A stretch of DNA of 64,000 nt from Methanoregula sp. (GTDB taxonomy: Archaea; Halobacteriota; Methanomicrobia; Methanomicrobiales; Methanospirillaceae): NCBI GenBank assembly GCA_041653075.1, contig JBAZFZ010000004.1, positions 2,699 through 66,698 of the forward strand. Direction: 5' to 3'. The notes beneath the pieces are model-generated. The model saw nothing but the letters and a program-made list of their open reading frames with translations, did not search any database and was not told the DNA's origin. Of the stretch, positions 21,743 through 42,472 are shown piece by piece. Position 1 is the stretch's first letter. The number at the start of each line of letters is the position of its first letter. The position numbers were made by a program, and so were the translations under genes.

Positions 21743-23452
21743 TTACCTTGCGGGGATGATCAGCGAGCGCTCGCCAGCTGGCATGAACTCGCGGATTGCA
21801 CCCTTTGCAAATTCGCGGCGTGGTTCGGCGAAATCGAATTTGAGCGAGGGGTCAGCGAAGGTGATCTTGATCAACGGGGACAGCGACCATGCATCGCCGC
21901 GGCCATAGTGGGAACTGCCGACAATTGCAGCGTATTCTCCCTGGTGACCGACGTTCATTGCATAGTTCGGGTAGTTCGGGCCACGGAGCTCACCGACACA
22001 ACCTTCGTCAGGCCGGACGGAGAGCGAGTTTGCGGAACCGCACTGGTCCTGCAGGTCGTAACCGAAGAATCCGAGACGTGACCAGCCTTCCTTGTGCAGG
22101 AGCATGGACATGTACCAGCCGTTGAGACCGGCGTTGGAGTTACCGGTTGCAATTGCCGTGGTAAGACCGGATGCTGCTGCAAGGACACCTGCACGCTGGG
22201 AACCACCGAAGTGGTCTTCCATCATAGTCGGGAACTGTTCGTACTGCTCCATACCGTAGAGGGTGACTTCGGAGGCGAGGTCGTTTACCAGTTCCTGGGT
22301 GGGCTTGACCTTATCTTTGTCTGACGGGTTCTTCCAGTCGACTTTGCACTTGTCCTTGATGTAGTCCATACCGTAATAGGTGAAGTCATCGAGGATGTTA
22401 TCTGTGTATGCTGCGGTTGCATACTGGGTGAATCCAACACCACCGGACATGTAAGATCCGAGCCAGATCTGGTCAAAGAGCATCGTTCCACCACCGACGA
22501 CTTCAAGGGATGCCTTGGCGGGGTCGTTGGGGTACTTGCGGTCTGCCTGGATCATATCGGCAAAGTTTCCGAACTTGATGCCACCTGGCTCGTTCGGGCC
22601 ACGTGCACGGCGGGCCGGGAGAATATCACCCATCTGGATAACGCCGGCGTGCTTTGCTGCAAAGGACAGGTCGGCGACTGCTGCTTCACCGGCGCACATG
22701 CGGTACGCGGCGATGAAGGATATACCGATCTGCATGGCGGACCACCGGGAGGTCGTTCCACCATCGCAGGTCCTGCTGACGGTTGTCGGGATGTGGACTG
22801 CCTGCCACATGGATTTGCCGACTGCTGCCTTGAGGGCTGCTGCCTGCTTTGCCGGGAAGAGCTTGTCGAGGTTTAAGACGAACTGCGGTTCGAGGTCGTC
22901 TGCCATCTCGTCGTCACCGGTAAAGACCTTGACGTAACAGTCATCAACGAGAGCCGGGTGGGTCTCGACCATGTGTTCCTGAACGACTGCGCCGCCGGGC
23001 ATTGCATGGTTGAGGACGTGGAGGTACTCGTTGATGGTCTCAGGGGTAACTTCTTTTCCCAGACGCTTCTGGAGGGTGTTGTGGGCGAGGTCGAGGCCGA
23101 CGATGATCGTGCGGCGGATATCATCCCACATCTGCTGCATTGCAGCGTTGTTGACGAAGTGGAGGTCATCACCTTCAACGAACACGCCGGTGCCGCTGAC
23201 CTCGTAGGTCATCAGCTGGCGCTGACCGAGCGGGATACCGCCAAGGTGGCAGCGCATCGGGTCGTACATTGAGATGCCGCGCTCCATTGCGACTTTCTGG
23301 CCTTCCTTTAAGAATTCCATCTTCCGTGGAGACTGCTTGATACCCTGCCGGCCGAAATGCGTGTGGGTTGCGGATGGGTCTTCTGCAAACTTCTCCTTCA
23401 TTGCCTTCAGGAAGAGTTTCTGGGATCTCTCAATTTTTGCTTTTCCTGCCAT
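21743..23452 (-). CDS. mcrA: Methyl-coenzyme M reductase alpha subunit
   Basis: [63 protein letters not shown]. Confidence 0.99.
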
Positions 23453-32890: not shown

Positions 32891-33775
32891 ATGGAACTTA
32901 ACGGTGTTTCGATTGATAATACCTATGCAGAGGCATTCCCTACCTGGGTCTGCCGTGTGATAATAACTGCAGTGACCAAGAACTGGGCACTTAATGCTGC
33001 AACAGAGGCAACCGGGTTTGCAACTTCAGCAATTGGATGCCCCTGCGAAGCAGGCATTGAGAATATTCTTTCCGGAAGTGAAACACCTGATGGACGCCCG
33101 GGCGTTTCAATCCTTATCTGTGCCGGTAAGAAGGCGCTCAAGGAGCAGGTTATGGAACGGCTTGCAGAGTGCGTCCTGACTTCACCGACCACGGCAGTCT
33201 TTAATGGTCTCCCGGCAGCAGAGGAAAAGGTCCCGGTGAAACTTCACTTCTTTGGCGATGGCTATGAGTACCAGAAGGAAGTCGGCGGAAGGAAGTGCTG
33301 GGCAATCCCCATCATGAACGGGGAATATATCGGTGAAGAGGAATTTGGCATTGTCAAGGGAGTTGCCGGCGGGAACTTCTTTATCATGGGTGAGAACCAG
33401 ATGGCAGCCCTTACTGCAGCAGAGGCAGCATCCGATGCAATTGCCGATGTGAAAGGTGTCATCACGAGCTTCCCCGGTGGTATCGTTGCCAGCGGTTCGA
33501 AGGTCGGCAGCCTGAAGTACAAATTCATGAAGGCCTCGACAAACGAGAAGTACTGCCCGACACTCCGGGAAAAAGTTGCTGACAGCAAGGTGCCGGCCGG
33601 TGTCAAAGCTGTGTACGAGATCGTTATCGATGGTATCGATGAAAAGAGCGTTGCTGCTGCAATGGGTGCAGGTATCAAAGCAGCAGTCATGGTTCCGGGT
33701 GTGAAGTTTATCTCTGCCGGAAACTTTGGTGGCAACCTTGGGCCGTTCAAGCTTGAACTTGAAAAGGTCCTTTAA
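32891..33775 (+). CDS. ftr: Formylmethanofuran:tetrahydromethanopterin formyltransferase
   Basis: IDNTYAEAF, TPDGRPG, GVAGGNF, SGSKVGS, AGNFGGNLGP. Confidence 0.98.
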   Translation: MELNGVSIDNTYAEAFPTWVCRVIITAVTKNWALNAATEATGFATSAIGCPCEAGIENILSGSETPDGRPGVSILICAGKKALKEQVMERLAECVLTSPTTAVFNGLPAAEEKVPVKLHFFGDGYEYQKEVGGRKCWAIPIMNGEYIGEEEFGIVKGVAGGNFFIMGENQMAALTAAEAASDAIADVKGVITSFPGGIVASGSKVGSLKYKFMKASTNEKYCPTLREKVADSKVPAGVKAVYEIVIDGIDEKSVAAAMGAGIKAAVMVPGVKFISAGNFGGNLGPFKLELEKVL

Positions 33776-33866
33776 ATCTCTTTTTGTGTTATTTTTCTTC
33801 AGTTTACCCAGTCTATATATAGGGTTAATGCCGATTATTTTGTTAACGAAAATTTCGGCGATAACC

Positions 33867-34823
33867 ATGATCACCCTTACTCCCGAGGAAGTGAAGGCCC
33901 GGTTCGGGCAACTTTTCTCAAAGAAGTTCCTCGTTATGGTAGATGAACAGGCAGGATTTGCAGAGATCATCGAGCAATGCCAGGCACGCGGTACCATTGA
34001 ATGGGATGCGATGAACCGGCGCCGGGCCGGGGGAGCTGTGGCTTCCTGTGATGTGGAGGGAAGCACGATGACTCTCCGGGCACATCTTGGCCACCATCCG
34101 GTCAACTTCGGGCCAGCAGCCGGTTCGATTGGTGGCCAGGCACTGGAGGCCGTTGAAGTGGACGGCGACACTGTTGTGACCACCTGGTCCGGTATCGCCG
34201 GGGCCGGTGTTGGCATTGCAGCATGTCTCCCCCAGGCACCCGGCGTCATCCGGGCTGAGTACCCTTCAGAAGATGACCTGAAAATCGGAGGAGCCCGTAT
34301 GAATCACGTGCGGATTGTCTCGCCGCTCTACGAGAAGGTATGTTTCGGGATCGATGACACCGATACAAAAGCCGAAGGTGCGACCTGGGTCATGGCCCTC
34401 AAGTGCGCCGGTGCCTGCACCGTTAAAGGTGTGGAATTTCTTAATATGCGCCTTGTCCAGCTCAACCCGAAAGTGCCGAACAAGACCACCAACTGTGTCG
34501 GATCGGCCCTCAATTTTGCAGCACGGCCGGAGAGTATTCCCGCACTCAAGGAGTTCGTCCGTTCATTTGTTGAGAAGAACTCGGTCTCAAAGGACACGGG
34601 GATCGCGTTCTACCGTGGCCTCTCGCTTAAGAAGGATTCCCCCCTGCTCAAAGGGATCAAGACCGAGATCCTCTCCCTTGAACCGGTCGAGTTGGAAGCA
34701 AAGCGCCTGGGTATCGAGTACCTTGACGGGAACGGGAGAAAGGGCCGGATTGGGGCGCTTGGTGCCGTACTCTGGGCAAACCGCGGGGTTGAGGCAGCAG
34801 GACTCTATGGCGAACATCTCTGA
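33867..34823 (+). CDS. Methanogenesis marker protein 11-like, paralogue 1 (C-terminal TiaS-like kinase domain)
   Basis: GIDDTD..EGATW, LVQLNPKVPNKTTNC, GRIGALGA; similar to the next gene along its whole length. Confidence 0.8.
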   Translation: MITLTPEEVKARFGQLFSKKFLVMVDEQAGFAEIIEQCQARGTIEWDAMNRRRAGGAVASCDVEGSTMTLRAHLGHHPVNFGPAAGSIGGQALEAVEVDGDTVVTTWSGIAGAGVGIAACLPQAPGVIRAEYPSEDDLKIGGARMNHVRIVSPLYEKVCFGIDDTDTKAEGATWVMALKCAGACTVKGVEFLNMRLVQLNPKVPNKTTNCVGSALNFAARPESIPALKEFVRSFVEKNSVSKDTGIAFYRGLSLKKDSPLLKGIKTEILSLEPVELEAKRLGIEYLDGNGRKGRIGALGAVLWANRGVEAAGLYGEHL

Positions 34824-35703
34824 CCCGTACAGCATCCGCTACCATAGGATCGTGGCGTTAGCGGATGGATCCGGCAGCCGGGTCGAACTTGTGGAATTCT
34901 TCGACTGTGTCGGCGGGGCAATGTGGACACAGTACCACTATGCAGAGAGCCCGCTTGTTGAGAGCGTCCGCTGTGTCGGCGCAACGAGCCGATTCCTCCT
35001 CAAACCGGGGTCAGTCAACCTCGCACTCGAAGGATCCCGTTTTCCGGCAGGGATTTCCGGCATTACTGTTTCGGGCGACGAAATTGCCGTTACCTATATA
35101 GGCATGGGTGGTGGGGGAGTCGGGGCGACGACCTGTCGGGCGGCTGCAAAAGGCGTGCTGCGCGAACACTGCGATCCCTCCGGGGGGGGAAAGGTAGCCT
35201 CGGCAACGCTCTGGCTGCCACGCATGCAGCGGGTGCTTATCGGTGTTGACGATACCGATACGCCCGAAGCCGGGGCAACCTGGACCCTTGTCCACAATAT
35301 TGCACAGGCCGTCGAAGATGAAGATGCAATATATCTATCCCATACGATAGTCCAGCTCTACCCGGTTCCGTACCGGACCAAGAACTGTGTCGGGCTTGTC
35401 GTTGAGTTTGCCACAACCAGCCCGGACACGCTTATCGAACGGTTCCGAAGCCTTCTTGAAAAATACACCCTGTCGGAAAAGACCGGCATGGCGGCGTACA
35501 CCGGGTTTGAACCTTCAGAACACCTGGAAGCGTACGGCTGGAATGTCAAACGGGGCGAGGTCAGCCCGGGCCTTATCGCACAGCTTGACGACAATGATCT
35601 CCGGATCTGCATGAACGGCCGTGGGATTGTCGGTGCTGTAGCGGCAATTCCCTTTTATACGAGATATAATGAGGCGCTGGAATTATGCGATGGCAAGACA
35701 TAA
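34807..35703 (+). CDS. Methanogenesis marker protein 11, paralogue 2 (C-terminal TiaS-like kinase domain)
   Basis: ATG at 34807 overlaps the upstream gene by 17 nt; GMGGGGVGA, IGVDDTDT..GATW, IVQLYPVPYRTKNC, GRGIVGAVAA. Confidence 0.85.
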   Translation: MANISDPYSIRYHRIVALADGSGSRVELVEFFDCVGGAMWTQYHYAESPLVESVRCVGATSRFLLKPGSVNLALEGSRFPAGISGITVSGDEIAVTYIGMGGGGVGATTCRAAAKGVLREHCDPSGGGKVASATLWLPRMQRVLIGVDDTDTPEAGATWTLVHNIAQAVEDEDAIYLSHTIVQLYPVPYRTKNCVGLVVEFATTSPDTLIERFRSLLEKYTLSEKTGMAAYTGFEPSEHLEAYGWNVKRGEVSPGLIAQLDDNDLRICMNGRGIVGAVAAIPFYTRYNEALELCDGKT

Positions 35704-36653
35704 AAGCGCGGCTTCTTGAAGCAGGATCGGCACGGCTCATCGGTGAACCGGCTAACCGTTACATCGCAACATCGACTGCGGGCCCGGGAGCCGGGGGTCT
35801 GGGTTCGATCTTCTTTGCGATGGGAAGCCACCGGGTGAAATTTGCACTTAACCCTGAAAGCAGCATCGAGATTGTCCACCGGGGCGGGGGCGTGGCCGAC
35901 CTCTATTATAATGACCAGCAGGTCTCCGGGAGGCTCCTTGAACCCGGACTTCACTGTCCGGACCAGGCGTTTATTACCGTCACCGAAAATTGCATCTTCC
36001 ACTGCACCTATTGCCCGGTGCCAACCCATCCCGGGAAACGCAAATCCGTGCGGGAGATCATGGACCGTGTCGAATCCGTCCGCCACCGGATCACTGCAAT
36101 TTCCCTGACAAGTGGGGTGATGGGGAGCATTGAAGAAGAGGAGGCTTATGTCTGCGAGGTTATCCGCCACTTAACGTTTTTTGATCTCCCCATTGGTGTT
36201 TCGATCTACCCGACCGATCAGACGCCGGACCGGCTCAAGGAGCTCGGGGTTACCGAAGTAAAGTTCAACATCGAAGCTGCGACCCCCGGACTTTTCGCAA
36301 AAGTCTGCCCGGGGCTCGATTACGACCGTCTCATGAGTGTGCTTGACCGCTCCGTAGAACTCTTCGGGCGGGGCAGGGTGTACTCCAATGTCATCATCGG
36401 CCTTGGGGAGACCGATGAGGAAATGAGGGCCTGCATCTCCCGGCTTACCTCTCACGGGGTGATCCCGGTGCTTCGTCCGCTCAATCCGGTGGCAGGGTTT
36501 GCCGGGAGCAGCCGGCCTTCGGCCGAACGGCTCAAAAAGATCTTTTCCCTGCACAGTATCTCACTCAAAAGTGCCGGCCTTGACACGACAAAGGCCCTGA
36601 CGATGTGTACACCCTGTGCCGGTTGTGATCTTGTCCCGGGGAGGGATGAATGA
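35685..36653 (+). CDS. Radical SAM protein (biotin-synthase-related, MSMEG_0568-like) with C-terminal CxxCxxC
   Basis: STAGPGAG, HCP, CIFHCTYC, FNIE, IIGLGET, C-terminal CTPCAGC. Confidence 0.85.
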   Translation: MRWQDIKARLLEAGSARLIGEPANRYIATSTAGPGAGGLGSIFFAMGSHRVKFALNPESSIEIVHRGGGVADLYYNDQQVSGRLLEPGLHCPDQAFITVTENCIFHCTYCPVPTHPGKRKSVREIMDRVESVRHRITAISLTSGVMGSIEEEEAYVCEVIRHLTFFDLPIGVSIYPTDQTPDRLKELGVTEVKFNIEAATPGLFAKVCPGLDYDRLMSVLDRSVELFGRGRVYSNVIIGLGETDEEMRACISRLTSHGVIPVLRPLNPVAGFAGSSRPSAERLKKIFSLHSISLKSAGLDTTKALTMCTPCAGCDLVPGRDE

Positions 36654-37921
36654 ACGGTGCGGCAGCGCTTGCGGAAGCACTCCACAGCTGTACTGACTAT
36701 CAGTATACCGTACCCGGTTTTCCCATCACGGAAGTCGGCACCCTTACGGGAGCAACCCTTGCGGTCAATGAAAAAACTGCATTAGAGTATGCTCTCGGGG
36801 ATTCCCTTGCCGGGAAACGGGCTGCTGCGATTATCAAGAATGTCGGGGTGAATGCATGTGCCGACCCGCTGGTCAATGCAACTGCGCAGGGGCTTATTGG
36901 CGGAGTCCTTCTTGTTGTCGGCGACGATCCTGAAGCGGTCGGGTCCCAGACTGCACAGGACTCCCGGTATTACGGGGAACTGGCAGAGATCCCGGTTCTC
37001 GAACCCGATGAATCGACCCTTTTTGCCGCAGTTGAATTGGCGCTTGAGGCATCAGAAGAGTCCTCCCGTGTCGCTATGCTCCGGGTGACCCCCCGGCTGC
37101 TGGATGCAGAAATGGAGTGGAGACCGGTAAAAAGGCAGGACCGGAAAGGACATCTTTCCCCGCGTGACCTTACCATGAACGGCCGGGTGACTGCCTCACA
37201 GGAACTGTACCGCACCCTGTTTGCCTGGTCGGAGAGTTCTCTGCTGAATACCTGGAATGCAGAACCCCTCGGCGCCGGACCGGCCCCGGGGAAATCCCGG
37301 GTGGTGACCGTTCATCCCGTCCCGGGTCGCGTTTCGGGTTACCTCCGCATAAACGAATGCGGTCGGTCGTTTGTCCGGGACCACCGGGGGGTTATGCCGC
37401 CGGAAATCGGGGGCGCACCCAAAACGCTGAAAAAAAGGGGTTTCTACCGGACATTCTGCAGGGAATGTCCATATAAACTCCTTCTTGACCTTATGAAATC
37501 CCGTGATATGCGGCCGATCTGCGATGCCGGCTGTTCGCTCTATGCAATGAATCCGCAGTACAGTATGGGTCTTGCAAGCTACGGCATGGGTTCAAGCATC
37601 GCAGTTGCCGCCCGGAGCACGCACGTAGCTCTGCTCGGCGATTATGCCCTGCTCCATTCAGGGATCAACGCCCTGATCGATGTGTATGAGAAGAGATTTC
37701 CGCTCCTGTGCGTCGTGATGAGAAATCACTGCGCAGCGATGACCGGAGGCCAGCCTGCAAGCGATCCCCTCCCCTACATTACCTGGGCAGACCCGGTTGT
37801 CTGCGGTGCGGAAGATGAACATCTTCTCGGCAACGTTATCCGGCAGACGGATACACCGGTGACGGTGGTCGTGGAAGCACAGTGTCCCGAGGGAGTACAT
37901 CATGAAACCGTGGAATGTTGA
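36650..37921 (+). CDS. ThDP-dependent enzyme, truncated IorA (indolepyruvate oxidoreductase alpha)-like
   Basis: PGFPITE, NEKTALE, KNVGVN..ADP, GDDP..SQTAQDSR, FCRECPY, DAGC, GDYALLHSG...N..AMTGGQ; no C-terminal ferredoxin domain. Confidence 0.85.
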   Translation: MNGAAALAEALHSCTDYQYTVPGFPITEVGTLTGATLAVNEKTALEYALGDSLAGKRAAAIIKNVGVNACADPLVNATAQGLIGGVLLVVGDDPEAVGSQTAQDSRYYGELAEIPVLEPDESTLFAAVELALEASEESSRVAMLRVTPRLLDAEMEWRPVKRQDRKGHLSPRDLTMNGRVTASQELYRTLFAWSESSLLNTWNAEPLGAGPAPGKSRVVTVHPVPGRVSGYLRINECGRSFVRDHRGVMPPEIGGAPKTLKKRGFYRTFCRECPYKLLLDLMKSRDMRPICDAGCSLYAMNPQYSMGLASYGMGSSIAVAARSTHVALLGDYALLHSGINALIDVYEKRFPLLCVVMRNHCAAMTGGQPASDPLPYITWADPVVCGAEDEHLLGNVIRQTDTPVTVVVEAQCPEGVHHETVEC

Positions 37922-39029
37922 GATCTGTGACGTAACGTTACGGGACGGAGAACAGACACCGGGAGTGTCGTTTTCCTGCGAGGAGAAAGTGGATATCGCC
38001 CGGACCCTTGATGCCATAGGTATCGAGGTTATCGAGGCCGGGTTTCCCGCAGTATCCGATAATGAGAAAAAGTGCGTGAAGACTATCGCAAACCTCGGCC
38101 TTGACTCCAGAATTTGCGGTTTTGCCCGGGCACGGGAACCGGATATCCTGGCCGCGATCGACTGCGATGTGGACATGGTTTCGATCTTTATCCCGACATC
38201 TGATCTTCACGTTCGCCTCAAGTTCAAAAAATCCCGTGAACAGGTCCTTGAAGATGCCCTTGGCATGATCGATTTTGCCCGGGATCACGGTGTAAAGGTG
38301 CGGTTTGCCGCAGAAGATGCCTCACGGACCGATGTAGCCTTCCTCAAGGACGTTTACAATGGTGCTGCAGAGCACGGGGCGCTTCTTGTCAGCTTTGCTG
38401 ATACGGTCGGCTGCCTTGTCCCCAACGAGATGCGCACGATTATGACCGACCTTGTGTCTTCTGTTAAACTGCCGCTGTGTGCCCACTGCCACAACGATAT
38501 GGGATGTGCGGTCGCAAACACGATCACGGCCGCAGATGCGGGAGCCTTCCAGCTCCACACCACGGTAAACGGCATCGGGGAGCGCTCCGGGAATGCATCC
38601 CTTGATGAAGTGCTTGTCATCCTCCGGCAGAAAGGCGGGATCGACCGGTACGACCTCTCGTACCTGACAACCCTATCCCGCAAGGTAGAAAAATACTCGG
38701 GAATTACGCTTCCGAGGAACAAGCCGGTAACCGGTGAACTTGCGTTCTCGCATGAGAGCGGCATCCACATCGCAGCAATCCTTGAGGATCCCAAGAGCTA
38801 CGAGTACTTCCCCCCGGATCTTGTCGGGGGAGAGCGGCACTTTATTCTGGGGAAGCACACCGGGCGAAAAGCACTCGAACATGTTGTCTCGTCCCTCGGT
38901 TACGATCTCTCCGAAGTCCAGATCTGCCGGGTGCTCGATCTTGTCAAGGTGCACTCCGAACAGAAGTGCAGCATAACCCCCAAGATCCTCCAGAAGCTGA
39001 TCCGTCGGGCACAAAAGGAGTCTGTCTGA
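37902..39029 (+). CDS. aksA: Homocitrate synthase family enzyme for 2-oxoacid elongation (AksA)
   Basis: DVTLRDGEQTPG, HCHND, NGIGERSGN, HESGIH; 375 aa, without the C-terminal regulatory domain of LeuA/CimA. Confidence 0.85.
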   Translation: MKPWNVEICDVTLRDGEQTPGVSFSCEEKVDIARTLDAIGIEVIEAGFPAVSDNEKKCVKTIANLGLDSRICGFARAREPDILAAIDCDVDMVSIFIPTSDLHVRLKFKKSREQVLEDALGMIDFARDHGVKVRFAAEDASRTDVAFLKDVYNGAAEHGALLVSFADTVGCLVPNEMRTIMTDLVSSVKLPLCAHCHNDMGCAVANTITAADAGAFQLHTTVNGIGERSGNASLDEVLVILRQKGGIDRYDLSYLTTLSRKVEKYSGITLPRNKPVTGELAFSHESGIHIAAILEDPKSYEYFPPDLVGGERHFILGKHTGRKALEHVVSSLGYDLSEVQICRVLDLVKVHSEQKCSITPKILQKLIRRAQKESV

Positions 39030-40240
39030 TGAGCACGCTCTCCGAAAGGATTCTTGGCGCACATGCCGGGGAATATGTGGACCGGAACGTTGACCGGGCC
39101 TATGTCCACGATGGGACCGGAGTCATTGCTCTTGAATCCTGGAAACAGATGGGAGGCGACCGGCTCGGGAAAGATACCCGGTATTATGTCCTCTTCGACC
39201 ACATTGTCCCGGCAAACAATGGTACGACCGCAACCCTCCAGCAAGAGCTTCGGGATTATGCAAAGAAATCCGGAATGCAGTTCTCCGATATCGGCGGCGG
39301 CATCTGTCACCAGCTCATGAGCGAGGGCATCGTCCGGCCCGGGGAGGTTGTTGTCGGTGCAGATTCGCACAGCGTCACAGGTGGGGCATTCGGGGCATTT
39401 GCCACGGGAGTCGGAGCAACCGATATGGCCGCAATCTGGCTGACCGGTGAGACCTGGTTCCGTGTCCCTGAGTCCGTGGGGATCCATCTTGCCGGCAGAC
39501 TATCAGGAGCTGCCGAAGCAAAGGATCTTGCCCTTATGTATGTCGGGAAACTGGGGACTGACGGGGCGACTTACCAGGCCCTCGAATTTATCGGAGAGGG
39601 TATCCGGAGCCTCTCCATGGATGAGCGCCTGGTGCTTTCCAACCTTTCTGTGGAAGCCGGGGCAAAGGCCGGGCTTTTCTATGCTGACGATGTGACCGTT
39701 CGTTACCTTAAGGAACAGGGTTGCGAAGCTGCCACGCAGGATATCGAACCCTGTGCCTATGCTCGGGAGCTCGATCTCGATCTCGCGGATGTCGTCCCTC
39801 TTGTGGCGGTCCCCCACCGGGTGGACACGGTAAAACCCGCAGACGCCTTGGCCGGGCTCGCTCTTGACCAGGTCTTTGTCGGGACCTGCACGAACGGCCG
39901 GTATTCCGATCTCGCCCGGTTCGCACGGCTGGTCAAAGGCAAAAAGGTCGCGGTACGGACCATTGTTATCCCTGCTTCGGCAGCCATCCTTGAGAAAGCG
40001 ATCATGACCGGTGTGCTCGCTGATATCGTGAAAGCCGGGTGCACCATAGGTACTCCCGGGTGTGGCCCCTGCATCGGGTACCACATGGGAGTTCTCGGGG
40101 AGGGCGAGGTCTGCCTCTCCACTGCGAACCGCAATTTCAAAAACCGGATGGGTGTCGGCGGCGAGATCTACCTTGGCTCGATTGCCACCGCCGCTGCAAG
40201 CGCCTTAAAAGGTGAGATAACCTCACCGGAGGCTGCCTGA
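39029..40240 (+). CDS. aksD: Homoaconitase large subunit
   Basis: HDGTG, DSHS, GTCTNGR, PGCGPCIG, NRNF; TGATG coupling to aksA. Confidence 0.85.
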   Translation: MSTLSERILGAHAGEYVDRNVDRAYVHDGTGVIALESWKQMGGDRLGKDTRYYVLFDHIVPANNGTTATLQQELRDYAKKSGMQFSDIGGGICHQLMSEGIVRPGEVVVGADSHSVTGGAFGAFATGVGATDMAAIWLTGETWFRVPESVGIHLAGRLSGAAEAKDLALMYVGKLGTDGATYQALEFIGEGIRSLSMDERLVLSNLSVEAGAKAGLFYADDVTVRYLKEQGCEAATQDIEPCAYARELDLDLADVVPLVAVPHRVDTVKPADALAGLALDQVFVGTCTNGRYSDLARFARLVKGKKVAVRTIVIPASAAILEKAIMTGVLADIVKAGCTIGTPGCGPCIGYHMGVLGEGEVCLSTANRNFKNRMGVGGEIYLGSIATAAASALKGEITSPEAA

Positions 40241-40710
40241 TGCAGGGACATGGAAAGGCCGTCTGCCTGCCTGCCGATATAGATACCGATATTGTCATTG
40301 CGGGCCGGTACCTGCGGACCAGGGACCGGAGCATCTGGGGTGAACATGTGTTTGAGGACCTCGATCCGTCCCTTGCCCCCCGGTTGAAAGGTGCCGTGAT
40401 TGTTGCCGGGAAAAACTTCGGGTGCGGTTCATCGCGGGAACAGGCAGCGATTGCGATCCATGAAGCAGGCGTTGTCGCTGTTATCGCCCCCTCGTTTGCG
40501 AGGATCTTCTTTAGGAACGCGATCAACATCGGCCTCCCGCTCATCGAGTCGGATATGACCTGCACGGATGGAGGTGAAATCGGGTTCAGCCTGTCAGAAG
40601 GCTGGGTTCGGTGTGACGGAAAGCAGCACGCGATTCGCCCCCTATCCCCCCGCATGCAGGAGATCCTCAATGCAGGCGGGCTTGTGGAATACTGGAGGTC
40701 CCACCGGTGA
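40240..40710 (+). CDS. aksE: Homoaconitase small subunit
   Basis: IDTDIVI, NFGCGSSRE; YLRT loop characteristic of methanogen homoaconitase small subunit rather than LeuD. Confidence 0.88.
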   Translation: MQGHGKAVCLPADIDTDIVIAGRYLRTRDRSIWGEHVFEDLDPSLAPRLKGAVIVAGKNFGCGSSREQAAIAIHEAGVVAVIAPSFARIFFRNAINIGLPLIESDMTCTDGGEIGFSLSEGWVRCDGKQHAIRPLSPRMQEILNAGGLVEYWRSHR

Positions 40711-41507
40711 TTTTCCCCGAGCACTGCAAGTTCGTGGGGCTTGCGACGACAAAACCCTGTGGCGACCGGGTCTATACCCTGAGCAGGTACCTACTCCGGG
40801 AGGTAAGCGAAGGATACGAGCTCATTGAGGTTACGCTGGATCCGACAGAAAAGACGGTCATGCGGGATATCGCCGCCTCCCGGATCCTTGCGACCCCGGG
40901 CGAGATTTACCGGTATCCGGAGAGAGTCCGGCTCAACGACCGGGCCCGGCTGGTTCGGCTCGCCCTTGAATCCGGGTACCGCTGCACGGTCTTTACCGGC
41001 CTTGAGGAAAACATGACTTTTGTGCTTGACCCCGATCTCTCCGGGTTTTTGACGGTGCATGTCTACGATGTTATCCCGCCCCGGCCAACCCTTTCGGCAA
41101 GTATCCGTGAGATAGAGGAGATCGGGCTCTTTGGTGATCTCTCCGTGGTCTTCGAGCATCATGTCCGGGACATTTCGAAGATTCCCGCAGATATCTATCC
41201 CTGCCGGGCCGCCGGCTATCCACGGACGCTGGATGCAGACTCCTTAAAAAGCGGCGACCTGGTGGCAGGATGCCTCACGGCAACGCAGCTCTGTACTGAG
41301 GTCTACGGGAAGGAGTATACGCTTGAGAATATCTGTCCGCTGGAACAGGTCAAAGAGGAGCCGTTTATCGCCCGGTGCTGCCGTTTAGAACGTGAAGGCG
41401 TGGGGATCTGGCACGGGAAATACGGTGCCATCGTCCACTGGGGTGCAAGCCCGGCAAAGATCTTCCGGTCCGTGCAGGAGCTTGTCGGCCAGTGGAGGGA
41501 AAAATGA
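40707..41507 (+). CDS. Cys-rich hypothetical protein inside the aks operon
   Basis: GTGA and ATGA overlaps on the two sides; motifs DVIPP, YPC, GC, ICP, RCC, VHWG. Confidence 0.85.
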   Translation: MIFPEHCKFVGLATTKPCGDRVYTLSRYLLREVSEGYELIEVTLDPTEKTVMRDIAASRILATPGEIYRYPERVRLNDRARLVRLALESGYRCTVFTGLEENMTFVLDPDLSGFLTVHVYDVIPPRPTLSASIREIEEIGLFGDLSVVFEHHVRDISKIPADIYPCRAAGYPRTLDADSLKSGDLVAGCLTATQLCTEVYGKEYTLENICPLEQVKEEPFIARCCRLEREGVGIWHGKYGAIVHWGASPAKIFRSVQELVGQWREK

Positions 41508-42472
41508 CAAAGATTGCCGTTGTCGAAGGTGACGGGATCGGCCACGAAGTGATCCCGGTCGCACAAAACGCCCTTGCCCTGCTCCACCCGGAATACGAGT
41601 TTTTCCCGGTGGATGTAGGATACGGACGGTGGGAAACGACCGGCTGCCCCTGTTCTGACGATGAGATTGCGGCGCTCAAAACTGCGGACGCTGTTCTGTT
41701 CGGGGCGATAACAACTCTTCCGATGAAGGATTACCAGAGCGTGGTCCTGCGTATACGAAAAGCTCTCGATCTGTATGCGAACCTGCGGCCGGTGAAAGGC
41801 GACAATTTTGACATTATGATTGTCCGGGAGAATACCGAGGGCCTGTATTCGGGAATTGAAGAGAGCACGGAGGACCGGGCGACTACGCTCCGGCTTGTGA
41901 CCCGCACCGGTTCGGAACGGATAGTACGGTCTGCACTCCATCTTGCGAAATCACGTTCGGGTAAACTCACCATCGGCCATAAGGCAAATGTACTCAAGTC
42001 CGATGTCTTTTTCCGGGATATCTGCATTGCAGAGGTAAAAGATACGGGAATCTCGTGCAACGACAAGTTCATCGATGCCCTGGCCCTTGATGTCCTCCAG
42101 CACCCGGCTGCATACGATGTGATCGTGACAACCAACATCTTTGGCGATATCCTCTCGGATGTCGCATCGTACCTTGTCGGGGGCCTGGGGCTTGTCCCGA
42201 GCGCCAATGTCGGCGACCGGTATGCCCTCTTTGAACCGGTTCACGGCAGCGCCCCGGATATTGCCGGGAAAAATATCGCAAATCCCATAGCGGCCCTCCG
42301 AAGTGCATCGATGCTCCTTTCCCATCTTGGGGACCGTAAAGGAGCCGGTCGGATCGAATCTGCCATAGCTGCAGTGCTTGCATCCGGTATCCGGACCCGG
42401 GACCTTGGCGGATCGGTCGGGACCGTGGAATTTGGCGGGGCAGTCATCCGGGCACTTGGCTTGACTTCCTGA
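41504..42472 (+). CDS. aksF: Homoisocitrate dehydrogenase (AksF)
   Basis: GDGIG.EV, GAITT...YQSVVLRIRK (HICDH-type), RENTEGLYSG, HKANVL, NIFGDILSD, EPVHGSAPDIAG. Confidence 0.85.
   Translation: MTKIAVVEGDGIGHEVIPVAQNALALLHPEYEFFPVDVGYGRWETTGCPCSDDEIAALKTADAVLFGAITTLPMKDYQSVVLRIRKALDLYANLRPVKGDNFDIMIVRENTEGLYSGIEESTEDRATTLRLVTRTGSERIVRSALHLAKSRSGKLTIGHKANVLKSDVFFRDICIAEVKDTGISCNDKFIDALALDVLQHPAAYDVIVTTNIFGDILSDVASYLVGGLGLVPSANVGDRYALFEPVHGSAPDIAGKNIANPIAALRSASMLLSHLGDRKGAGRIESAIAAVLASGIRTRDLGGSVGTVEFGGAVIRALGLTS

Follow-up and report, generated by a model that had tools for sequence, protein, structure and literature searches.

A ferredoxin-less IorA-like thiamine diphosphate protein encoded in the aks operon of Methanomicrobiales: a candidate enzyme for 2-oxosuberate decarboxylation in coenzyme B synthesis

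A 64,000-nucleotide stretch of a Methanoregula sp. contig (hereafter the window) carries, at positions 36650-37921 of the forward strand, an open frame of 423 codons for an IorA-like, thiamine diphosphate (ThDP)-dependent protein of 423 amino acids (aa), designated P0001. The gene is embedded in an operon with the aks genes of coenzyme B synthesis, and its sequence and context make its product the best available candidate for the missing enzyme that decarboxylates 2-oxosuberate. A dedicated role of this enzyme on a product of the Aks proteins in the coenzyme B pathway is likely. The fuller proposal, that it is a non-oxidative decarboxylase converting 2-oxosuberate to 7-oxoheptanoate for coenzyme B, has in our judgement about an even chance of being correct. 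Methyl-coenzyme M reductase, which releases or consumes nearly all biological methane, takes its electrons from coenzyme B. To our knowledge, the steps that follow 2-oxosuberate have been without assigned genes since labelling work of the late 1980s outlined the pathway. Two unknown proteins are listed for the later steps of coenzyme B synthesis (Kaster 2011) and the pathway has more recently been called "still unknown" (Chadwick 2025). A literature search, whose coverage did not extend to subscription journals, found no publication assigning the 2-oxosuberate decarboxylation step.

Architecture of the 423-aa protein

The preliminary description of the gene, based on the letters of the sequence, credited its product with the N-terminal motifs of IorA, a ThDP-binding GD..N motif, CxxC, DAGC and a terminal CP, and with a shrunken central domain and the loss of the C-terminal ferredoxin domain. 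All of these motifs are present, and comparison with the NCBIfam model IOR_alpha bears out both the reduction and the loss. The 20-nt overlap with aksA at the 3' end of the gene is likewise real. The features of the gene are listed below in window coordinates, where OFOR stands for 2-oxoacid:ferredoxin oxidoreductase and "clade" for the group of sequences to which the protein belongs.

36650..37921, +, gene for the 423-aa IorA-like ThDP protein without ferredoxin domain (open frame, translation, TPP_enzyme_C, sub-threshold IOR_alpha, AlphaFold2 model)
36650..36653, +, ATGA overlap of 4 nt between the stop of the radical SAM gene and the start of the ThDP gene (sequence; relatives show the same junction)
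36650..37099, +, Pyr domain, residues 1-150, with VPGFPIT, Glu41 (NEK), GDD 91-93 and DSR 104-106 (IOR_alpha 17-165; invariant columns of alignment A1)
36710-36730, +, VPGFPIT motif (sequence read)
36770-36772, +, codon of E41 (sequence read)
37100..37423, +, reduced middle domain, residues about 151-258, remnant of OFOR domain II (model residues 1-249 align with OFOR alpha domains I+II)
37172-37186, +, TMNGR motif of the middle domain, with the family-specific basic residue R179 (R/K at 179 in 96% of the clade)
37424..37918, +, PP domain, residues 259-423, with MTGGQ (TPP_enzyme_C; aligns with OFOR beta 5b48_B)
37457..37468, +, CREC, C270-x-x-C273, first two putative ligands of a proximal [4Fe-4S] cluster (98% conserved in the clade; aligned with IorA C349/C352)
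37523..37534, +, D292-A-G-C295, third putative cluster ligand (D292 and G294 invariant; C295 98%, aligned with IorA C377)
37637-37726, +, ThDP/Mg motif GD(x27)N, G330-D331...N359 (G330, D331 and N359 invariant)
37883-37888, +, C412-P413, fourth putative cluster ligand (C412 98% conserved, aligned with IorA C519)
37883..37918, +, C-terminal tail CPxGxxHExxxC, with Cys423 as last residue (C423 and P413 near-invariant in Methanomicrobiales, alignment A4)
37902..37921, +, 20-nt overlap of the 3' end of the ThDP gene with the start of aksA (sequence; kept in 40 genomes)

In Pfam, the protein matches TPP_enzyme_C alone (residues 305-369, E 8e-08). Its match to IOR_alpha reaches 134.1 bits against a cut-off of 650.9 and falls into two stretches, which in the genome search cover model positions 17-165, the Pyr domain, and 357-469, the PP domain. 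The ferredoxin part of this model (about 540-595) is unmatched, and the Pfam scan of the protein shows no Fer4. The middle region (residues about 150-258) is shorter than that of IorA (model 165-357). It is also variable: long forms of the protein from other orders have 60-100 extra residues here, and some Methanomicrobiales forms, of 375-393 aa, are shorter still.

An alignment of 50 clade members with 29 canonical IorAs, including that of the same genome, shows that all residues conserved in IorA are also conserved in the clade (90-100%). The set comprises Glu41, Lys63, Asn68, Asp72, Asp92-Asp93, Arg106, GD..H..N, MTGGQ and four cysteines. Glu41 is the invariant cofactor-activating glutamate, and the motif residues of the Pyr domain are conserved in canonical IorA too. 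The catalytic core of OFORs is in place, with E41, R106, G330-D331 and N359 invariant or near-invariant and aligned with their IorA counterparts; the R106/T27 pair matches the carboxylate-binding arginine and the threonine of the YPITP motif of OFORs. The cysteines C270, C273, C295 and C412 align with C349, C352, C377 and C519 of the genome's own IorA, the pattern of a proximal [4Fe-4S] cluster. The protein thus retains a putative site for one such cluster, for which we infer a role that may be structural or redox-active.

Other positions are specific to the clade: aromatic residues at 24, 275, 311 and 332, basic residues at 179 (96%) and 263 (88%), and acidic residues at 372 and 419. The basic residue at 179 is not conserved in IorA, and it seems possible that R179 and R263 could hold a distal carboxylate. 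Methanomicrobiales share the tail CPxGxxHExxxC and its acidic residue at 419, where the long forms have other short tails. Ending in Cys423, the Methanomicrobiales tail might form an additional metal site or serve for docking.

For the 423-aa protein, AlphaFold2 modelling on the basis of 30 family members gave a confident structure, with a predicted local distance difference test score (pLDDT) of 93.4 and a predicted template modelling score (pTM) of 0.93. Residues 1-249 superpose on domains I and II of OFOR alpha subunits (6n2n_A, Z 23.7, root mean square deviation, rmsd, 2.7 Å; 5b47_A, Z 23.1; Methanosarcina pyruvate:ferredoxin oxidoreductase 9bt4_A, Z 21.8) and residues 259-417 on the OFOR beta subunit 5b48_B (Z 13.6). 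The protein consists of OFOR domain I, a reduced domain II and domain VI; domain III (coenzyme A (CoA) binding, IorB) and domain V (ferredoxin) are absent. The whole chain of the model superposes on decarboxylase-type (DC-type) ThDP enzymes, whose domains follow the same Pyr-middle-PP order (Z 25-27, rmsd 3.3-3.8 Å over 315-331 residues), and whole-chain Foldseek matches, with rmsd of 14-17 Å, served for naming the fold only. Searched against the PDB, the single protein sequence gave no match, and the family profile gave weak matches to DC-family enzymes only (E 3e-06 to 1e-04).

A conserved family beside aks and marker 11 genes

The gene had also been labelled an orphan. This label does not survive, as the 423-aa protein belongs to a large conserved family whose close members are abundant and annotated only as "TPP-dependent enzyme" or "IorA". 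The best matches outside the order are the long forms (476-531 aa), which end just past the last cysteine and have no Fer4. In a FastTree phylogeny, short and long forms make up a single clade (58 rows, SH-like support 94) outside canonical IorA (72 rows, support 100). A profile of the long forms separates the two groups, with family members scoring at least 485 bits and canonical IorA about 350-370 bits. Assignment to IorA proper (TIGR03336) was rejected on the score, on the missing ferredoxin domain, on the lack of an adjacent iorB and on the position in the tree. A 21-row bacterial clade of ferredoxin-less IorA-like proteins of about 500-530 aa, adjoining sugar-nucleotide and glycosyltransferase genes, branches apart in the tree and was set aside as functionally unrelated. 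On its contigs L108 and L109, NTP_transferase and glycosyltransferase genes adjoin, a setting suggestive of sugar or phosphonate-type modification, and spore germination genes lie nearby.

Canonical IorA is encoded elsewhere in the same genome, on another contig (840 bits, 582-620 aa, Fer4 at 533-582), and the only iorB of the genome is a fragment beside it (contig C48). When four gamma/IorB proteins of the genome were used as tblastn queries, no IorB- or gamma-like gene was detected within 8-10 kb of the present gene or of 29 homologous loci, as the preliminary description had noted for this locus. It had also proposed comparing co-occurrence with aks and with iorB: the gene lies beside aksA or marker 11 and never beside iorB.

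The ThDP gene is the fourth of nine genes of an operon, six of which are listed here with the operon itself; the ThDP gene is given above.

33726..42472, +, operon mm11a, mm11b, radical SAM, ThDP gene, aksA, aksD, aksE, DUF7714/XcbA-like, aksF (Pfam, NCBIfam)
35685-36653, +, radical SAM gene (Pfam/NCBIfam)
37902-39029, +, aksA (Pfam/NCBIfam)
38966-40240, +, aksD (Pfam/NCBIfam)
40240-40710, +, aksE (Pfam/NCBIfam)
40707-41507, +, DUF7714/XcbA-like gene, between aksE and aksF (Pfam/NCBIfam)
41492-42472, +, aksF (Pfam/NCBIfam)

The succession radical SAM-ThDP-aksA with overlapping reading frames was found in all 40 Methanomicrobiales genomes inspected, which represent about 20 genera and six families. 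All nine operon genes occur in 13 of 20 Methanomicrobiales genomes for which 20 kb was read, eight of the nine in the same order; in the other seven mm11a alone was not detected, and in one of the 20 DUF7714 and mm11a lie on the opposite strand. Of the LeuA-type paralogues of its genome, the clustered aksA is the third and short one, as expected for AksA. A predicted complex of the ThDP protein with the neighbouring radical SAM protein scored 0.00 against a mark of 0.32, a value that counts neither for nor against binding. A search for RNA evidence for the locus listed no RNA run, the sole strong match being a DNA run of a groundwater metagenome, in all likelihood the sample of origin. Completeness of the assembly is about 75%.

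The association extends beyond the order. Of ten loci from other orders, six have the long form immediately after marker 11 and four have it beside aksA/D/E/F, with or without DUF7714; marker 11 or aks adjoins the long form in nine of ten loci from other families. Ca. Methanoperedens is one of the organisms concerned. A search for related loci starting from one long form returned Methanoperedens loci only. In other orders, the orthologues of the radical SAM and DUF7714 genes are encoded far from the ThDP gene.

In the window, mcrA is found about 13 kb upstream of the operon (21749-23422, -). It lies on the same contig, 13-20 kb from the ThDP gene, in many relatives (for example G254, G229, G177, G072, G399, G249, G244, G329, G354, G394, G056, G112, G234 and G264).

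DUF7714 also bears on the product. The operon protein and nine orthologues cover the whole NCBIfam model of XcbA in sub-threshold matches (E 1e-12 to 1e-22), so that DUF7714 is, as judged from these matches, a distant relative of XcbA. In Xanthobacter, XcbA is a [2Fe-2S] protein which catalyses the last step of coenzyme M synthesis, the reduction of sulfoethanethioaldehyde to coenzyme M (PMC9457059). DUF7714 is, by analogy, a candidate 7-thioxoheptanoate reductase. The presence of a thioaldehyde reductase homologue in the aks operon implies an aldehyde-level C7 intermediate. Among the operon products, decarboxylation chemistry is confined to the ThDP enzyme, which would be the only one able to make that aldehyde from 2-oxosuberate.

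The distribution of these genes was searched in a sample of one GTDB phylum; class I methanogens, Methanomassiliicoccales and Thermoproteota methanogens lie outside this sample. Genomes within a family are kin, and the family counts therefore describe a pattern and are no statistical test. Within the order, the orthologue is present in 28/28, 14/14, 7/9, 3/3, 6/6 and 7/7 genomes of families f1 to f6, respectively. The core clade as a whole occurs in 13 McrA-bearing families (f1-f7, f10, f14, f24, f30, f34 and f36), and DUF7714 is found in these 13 and in f28, and in no other. In five McrA-positive genomes without the ThDP clade DUF7714 is absent too; four of them have ComDE and two a true marker 11. 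The ThDP clade and DUF7714 behave as one module which, as far as searched, is restricted to Methanomicrobiales, Methanosarcina-type lineages and ANME-2d.

In two McrA-positive genomes that lack the ThDP clade, G011 (f16, L124) and G097 (f8, L125), marker 11 directly precedes a different radical SAM gene. Orthology of its product with the radical SAM protein of the operon is not claimed, the identity being 22% only. The radical SAM gene of G097 has a TfuA-like gene as neighbour.

A sister variant found in families f19 and f31 has lost all four cluster cysteines and kept the ThDP residues. McrA is not among the matches listed for these two families, and DUF7714 was not found in them either. In one case (G030, f19; L071 8803-10233, -) the variant gene ends an aksA-aksD-aksE-aksF-like cluster, and further cases are L110 and G230 (f31). 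Together, variant and cluster look like a module for 2-oxoacid elongation and decarboxylation. The persistence of the cysteine-less variant in such a cluster indicates that the scaffold can function without the iron-sulfur cluster.

Two further censuses concern the 71 genomes of the order. BioB turned up in just two, G189 and G294 (genus g19), and no other genome was without a ThDP orthologue in the single-protein search than these two; both contain short stretches of N, which leaves the absence of the gene uncertain. ComE was not found in 24 of the 71, including genomes that are 98-99% complete. The near-complete ComE-negative genomes belong to genera g2, g3, g4, g12, g14, g20 and g21, and all carry the ThDP gene. 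In ComE-negative genomes either coenzyme M uptake or another decarboxylase serves. In genome G088, comE lies 2 kb from the true marker 16 gene, far from the ThDP operon.

Proposed reaction and competing explanations

The 423-aa protein is a minimal representative of the OFOR superfamily, within its IorA branch, and has kept the catalytic core. In the proposed reaction its substrate, 2-oxosuberate, would be supplied by the co-transcribed AksA, AksDE and AksF. ThDP would add to C2 of the substrate and CO2 would leave; with no CoA and no built-in electron relay, the hydroxyalkyl-ThDP intermediate would be protonated and 7-oxoheptanoate released as the aldehyde. The aldehyde would then be thiolated and reduced to 7-mercaptoheptanoate, with the XcbA-like DUF7714 protein as candidate thioaldehyde reductase, and the marker-11 proteins would join 7-mercaptoheptanoate to threonine and phosphorylate the product. 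Here we infer both the identity of the substrate and the non-oxidative outcome.

The preliminary description had already suggested a 2-oxosuberate decarboxylase. The tie to aks and coenzyme B on which this was built has become stronger, through the synteny in 40 of 40 genomes, the marker 11 and aks neighbours and the XcbA-like gene. Its second argument, that loss of the electron exit route implies a non-oxidative reaction, fails: OFORs of Sulfolobus tokodaii have no ferredoxin domain, carry only a proximal cluster near the surface and nevertheless reduce external ferredoxin, for which their Km is 2-3 µM (PMC5020499).

Several observations weigh against the decarboxylase proposal. As the Sulfolobus enzymes show, OFORs with a proximal cluster alone are fully active with external ferredoxin, and the retention of the cluster ligands and of the IorA catalytic residues at 90-100% is compatible with oxidoreductase chemistry. 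Conservation of the ligands at 98% in the clade indicates that the cluster matters, structurally or for redox. No proton donor of the decarboxylase type was identified in an analysis made without the coordinates of the model, and for the radical SAM protein and DUF7714, too, the functions are putative. The clade is also not universal. It was not found in the McrA-bearing families f12, f15, f16, f20 and f29 or in part of f8, where another enzyme must therefore carry out the step, and among 14 control genomes DUF7714 has matches in Methanosarcina acetivorans and none in Methanocaldococcus jannaschii. The conserved cluster, the lack of an identified proton donor and the precedent of single-cluster OFORs are the reasons why our confidence in the full statement is lower than that in a role in the pathway.

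The strongest competitor is a true oxidoreductase acting on 2-oxosuberate or a shorter Aks intermediate, in which electrons would leave through the proximal cluster to external ferredoxin and pimelate or pimeloyl-CoA would be formed. We regard it as unlikely. It can draw on the four cluster cysteines and the full set of IorA catalytic residues, on the Sulfolobus precedent, and on the canonical IorB and other gamma subunits encoded elsewhere in the genome. Formation of pimeloyl-CoA, for biotin or another use, would require domain III in trans, and it is domain III (IorB) that is really missing here for acyl-CoA formation. The lack of a domain III gene near any of the 30 loci and the decay of domain II, the contact to the rest of the OFOR assembly, which is degenerate and variable in length down to proteins of 375-393 aa, argue against an acyl-CoA product. 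The biotin route, which the preliminary description had offered as its alternative, is further disfavoured by the census of BioB: two genomes in 71 cannot account for a ThDP gene that is nearly ubiquitous. Coenzyme B synthesis does not pass through pimelate, an aldehyde or thioaldehyde intermediate is what the XcbA-like gene suggests, and the cysteine-less variant persists in an aks cluster.

A related view, rather unlikely in our estimate, is that the protein is a minimal OFOR in which the cluster is no relic and ThDP chemistry on 2-oxosuberate is coupled to those steps of the operon that involve sulfur and redox chemistry. Such an enzyme might donate electrons singly and directly, either to the XcbA-like reductase or to the radical SAM protein. 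If this were true, the operon would be a self-contained module leading from 2-oxoacid to thiol, and the route to the coenzyme B thiol in class II methanogens would differ from that in class I.

Alternatively, the cluster may have been kept as a built-in source of reductant, passing single electrons from a 2-oxoacid to the radical SAM or XcbA-like partner. The translational coupling to the radical SAM gene in 40 genomes would suit such an arrangement, as would the conservation of cluster ligands despite the absence of an internal relay and the need of an XcbA-type reductase for electrons at about -370 mV (PMC9457059). The separation of the radical SAM and DUF7714 orthologues from the ThDP gene in other orders speaks against it; moreover, oxidising the pathway's own precursor would be wasteful and the contact with a partner is hypothetical. 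On balance we consider this improbable.

The ThDP protein might instead decarboxylate sulfopyruvate for coenzyme M synthesis, or serve both thiol cofactors, the XcbA-like protein reducing the corresponding thioaldehyde or thioaldehydes. The genomes without detectable ComE that carry the ThDP gene, some of them 98-99% complete, and the role of XcbA as a coenzyme M enzyme in bacteria lend themselves to this explanation. We nevertheless think it equally improbable, given that ComDE and the ThDP gene coexist in most genomes and that the ThDP gene is locked in the aks operon, away from cysteate synthase and comDE. Where comE was located, in G088, its neighbour is marker 16, and P0001 has no match to the ComD and ComE models (TIGR03845/TIGR03846) at E <= 0.001.

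Finally, a spare IorA paralogue acting on aryl pyruvates with an IorB encoded elsewhere is very improbable: although IOR_alpha is the best family match and the genome has IorB, the score is far below the cut-off (134 bits against 651), the protein lacks the ferredoxin domain and falls in a separate clade, and its gene, always beside aksA or marker 11 and never beside iorB, coexists with canonical iorAB.

Significance and comparison with known systems

Together with the two marker-11 paralogues, the radical SAM gene and the XcbA-like gene, the ThDP gene provides a testable gene set for the steps after 2-oxosuberate in Methanomicrobiales, Methanosarcina-type methanogens and ANME-2d. The link to XcbA, the co-occurrence with DUF7714 at the level of families, the censuses of BioB and ComE and the precedent of single-cluster OFORs are what the present analysis adds to the case. 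Confirmation of the decarboxylase proposal would add a new catalytic outcome to the OFOR scaffold, would help to explain the differences in cofactor pathways between methanogen lineages and would provide methanogen-specific targets for methane mitigation.

Among known systems, canonical IorA is the closest. It shares with the 423-aa protein the one-chain order of Pyr, middle and PP domains, the glutamate of NEK, the GDD, DSR, CxxC, DxGC, GD..H..N and MTGGQ motifs and the last cysteine. The 423-aa protein differs in that the 2x[4Fe-4S] ferredoxin domain is missing, the middle domain is reduced and an IorB gene as partner is lacking, and in belonging to a separate clade, with aromatic residues in place of Thr/Ser at 24 and 332 and of His at 275, and basic residues at 179 and 263.

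StOFOR1/2 of Sulfolobus tokodaii (PDB 5b46-5b48) likewise have no internal ferredoxin domain and only the proximal [4Fe-4S] site, which is putative in the present protein. The AlphaFold2 model aligns with both their alpha subunit (Z 23.1) and their beta subunit (Z 13.6). However, StOFOR keeps domain III (alpha residues 1-228), uses CoA and ferredoxin and works in central metabolism, whereas the 423-aa protein is without domain III.

The resemblance to DC-type ThDP enzymes, such as pyruvate decarboxylase, acetohydroxyacid synthase and oxalyl-CoA decarboxylase/2-hydroxyacyl-CoA lyase, is confined to fold and domain order. These enzymes show 12-16% identity, have no iron-sulfur site, in contrast to the four-cysteine site of the 423-aa protein, and often have a nucleotide-binding middle domain.

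For the proposed chemistry, release of an aldehyde by an OFOR without net oxidation has a reported parallel: the pyruvate:ferredoxin oxidoreductase of Pyrococcus furiosus is reported, in work by Ma and colleagues of 1997, to act as a pyruvate decarboxylase. That side reaction differs in being CoA-dependent and carried out by a complete four-subunit enzyme.

The functional analogue would be ComDE (TIGR03845/TIGR03846), in which ThDP-dependent, non-oxidative decarboxylation of a 2-oxoacid likewise yields the aldehyde precursor of the thiol of a methanogen cofactor. ComDE belongs to another ThDP family, has no cysteine cluster motif and coexists with the ThDP gene in most genomes of the order. 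That sulfopyruvate decarboxylase might serve as a model for the coenzyme B step is reported to be an old suggestion, made by Graham and White in 2002. Seen against these systems, the 423-aa protein represents a known kind of enzyme in a variant form, with a predicted new role rather than an established function.

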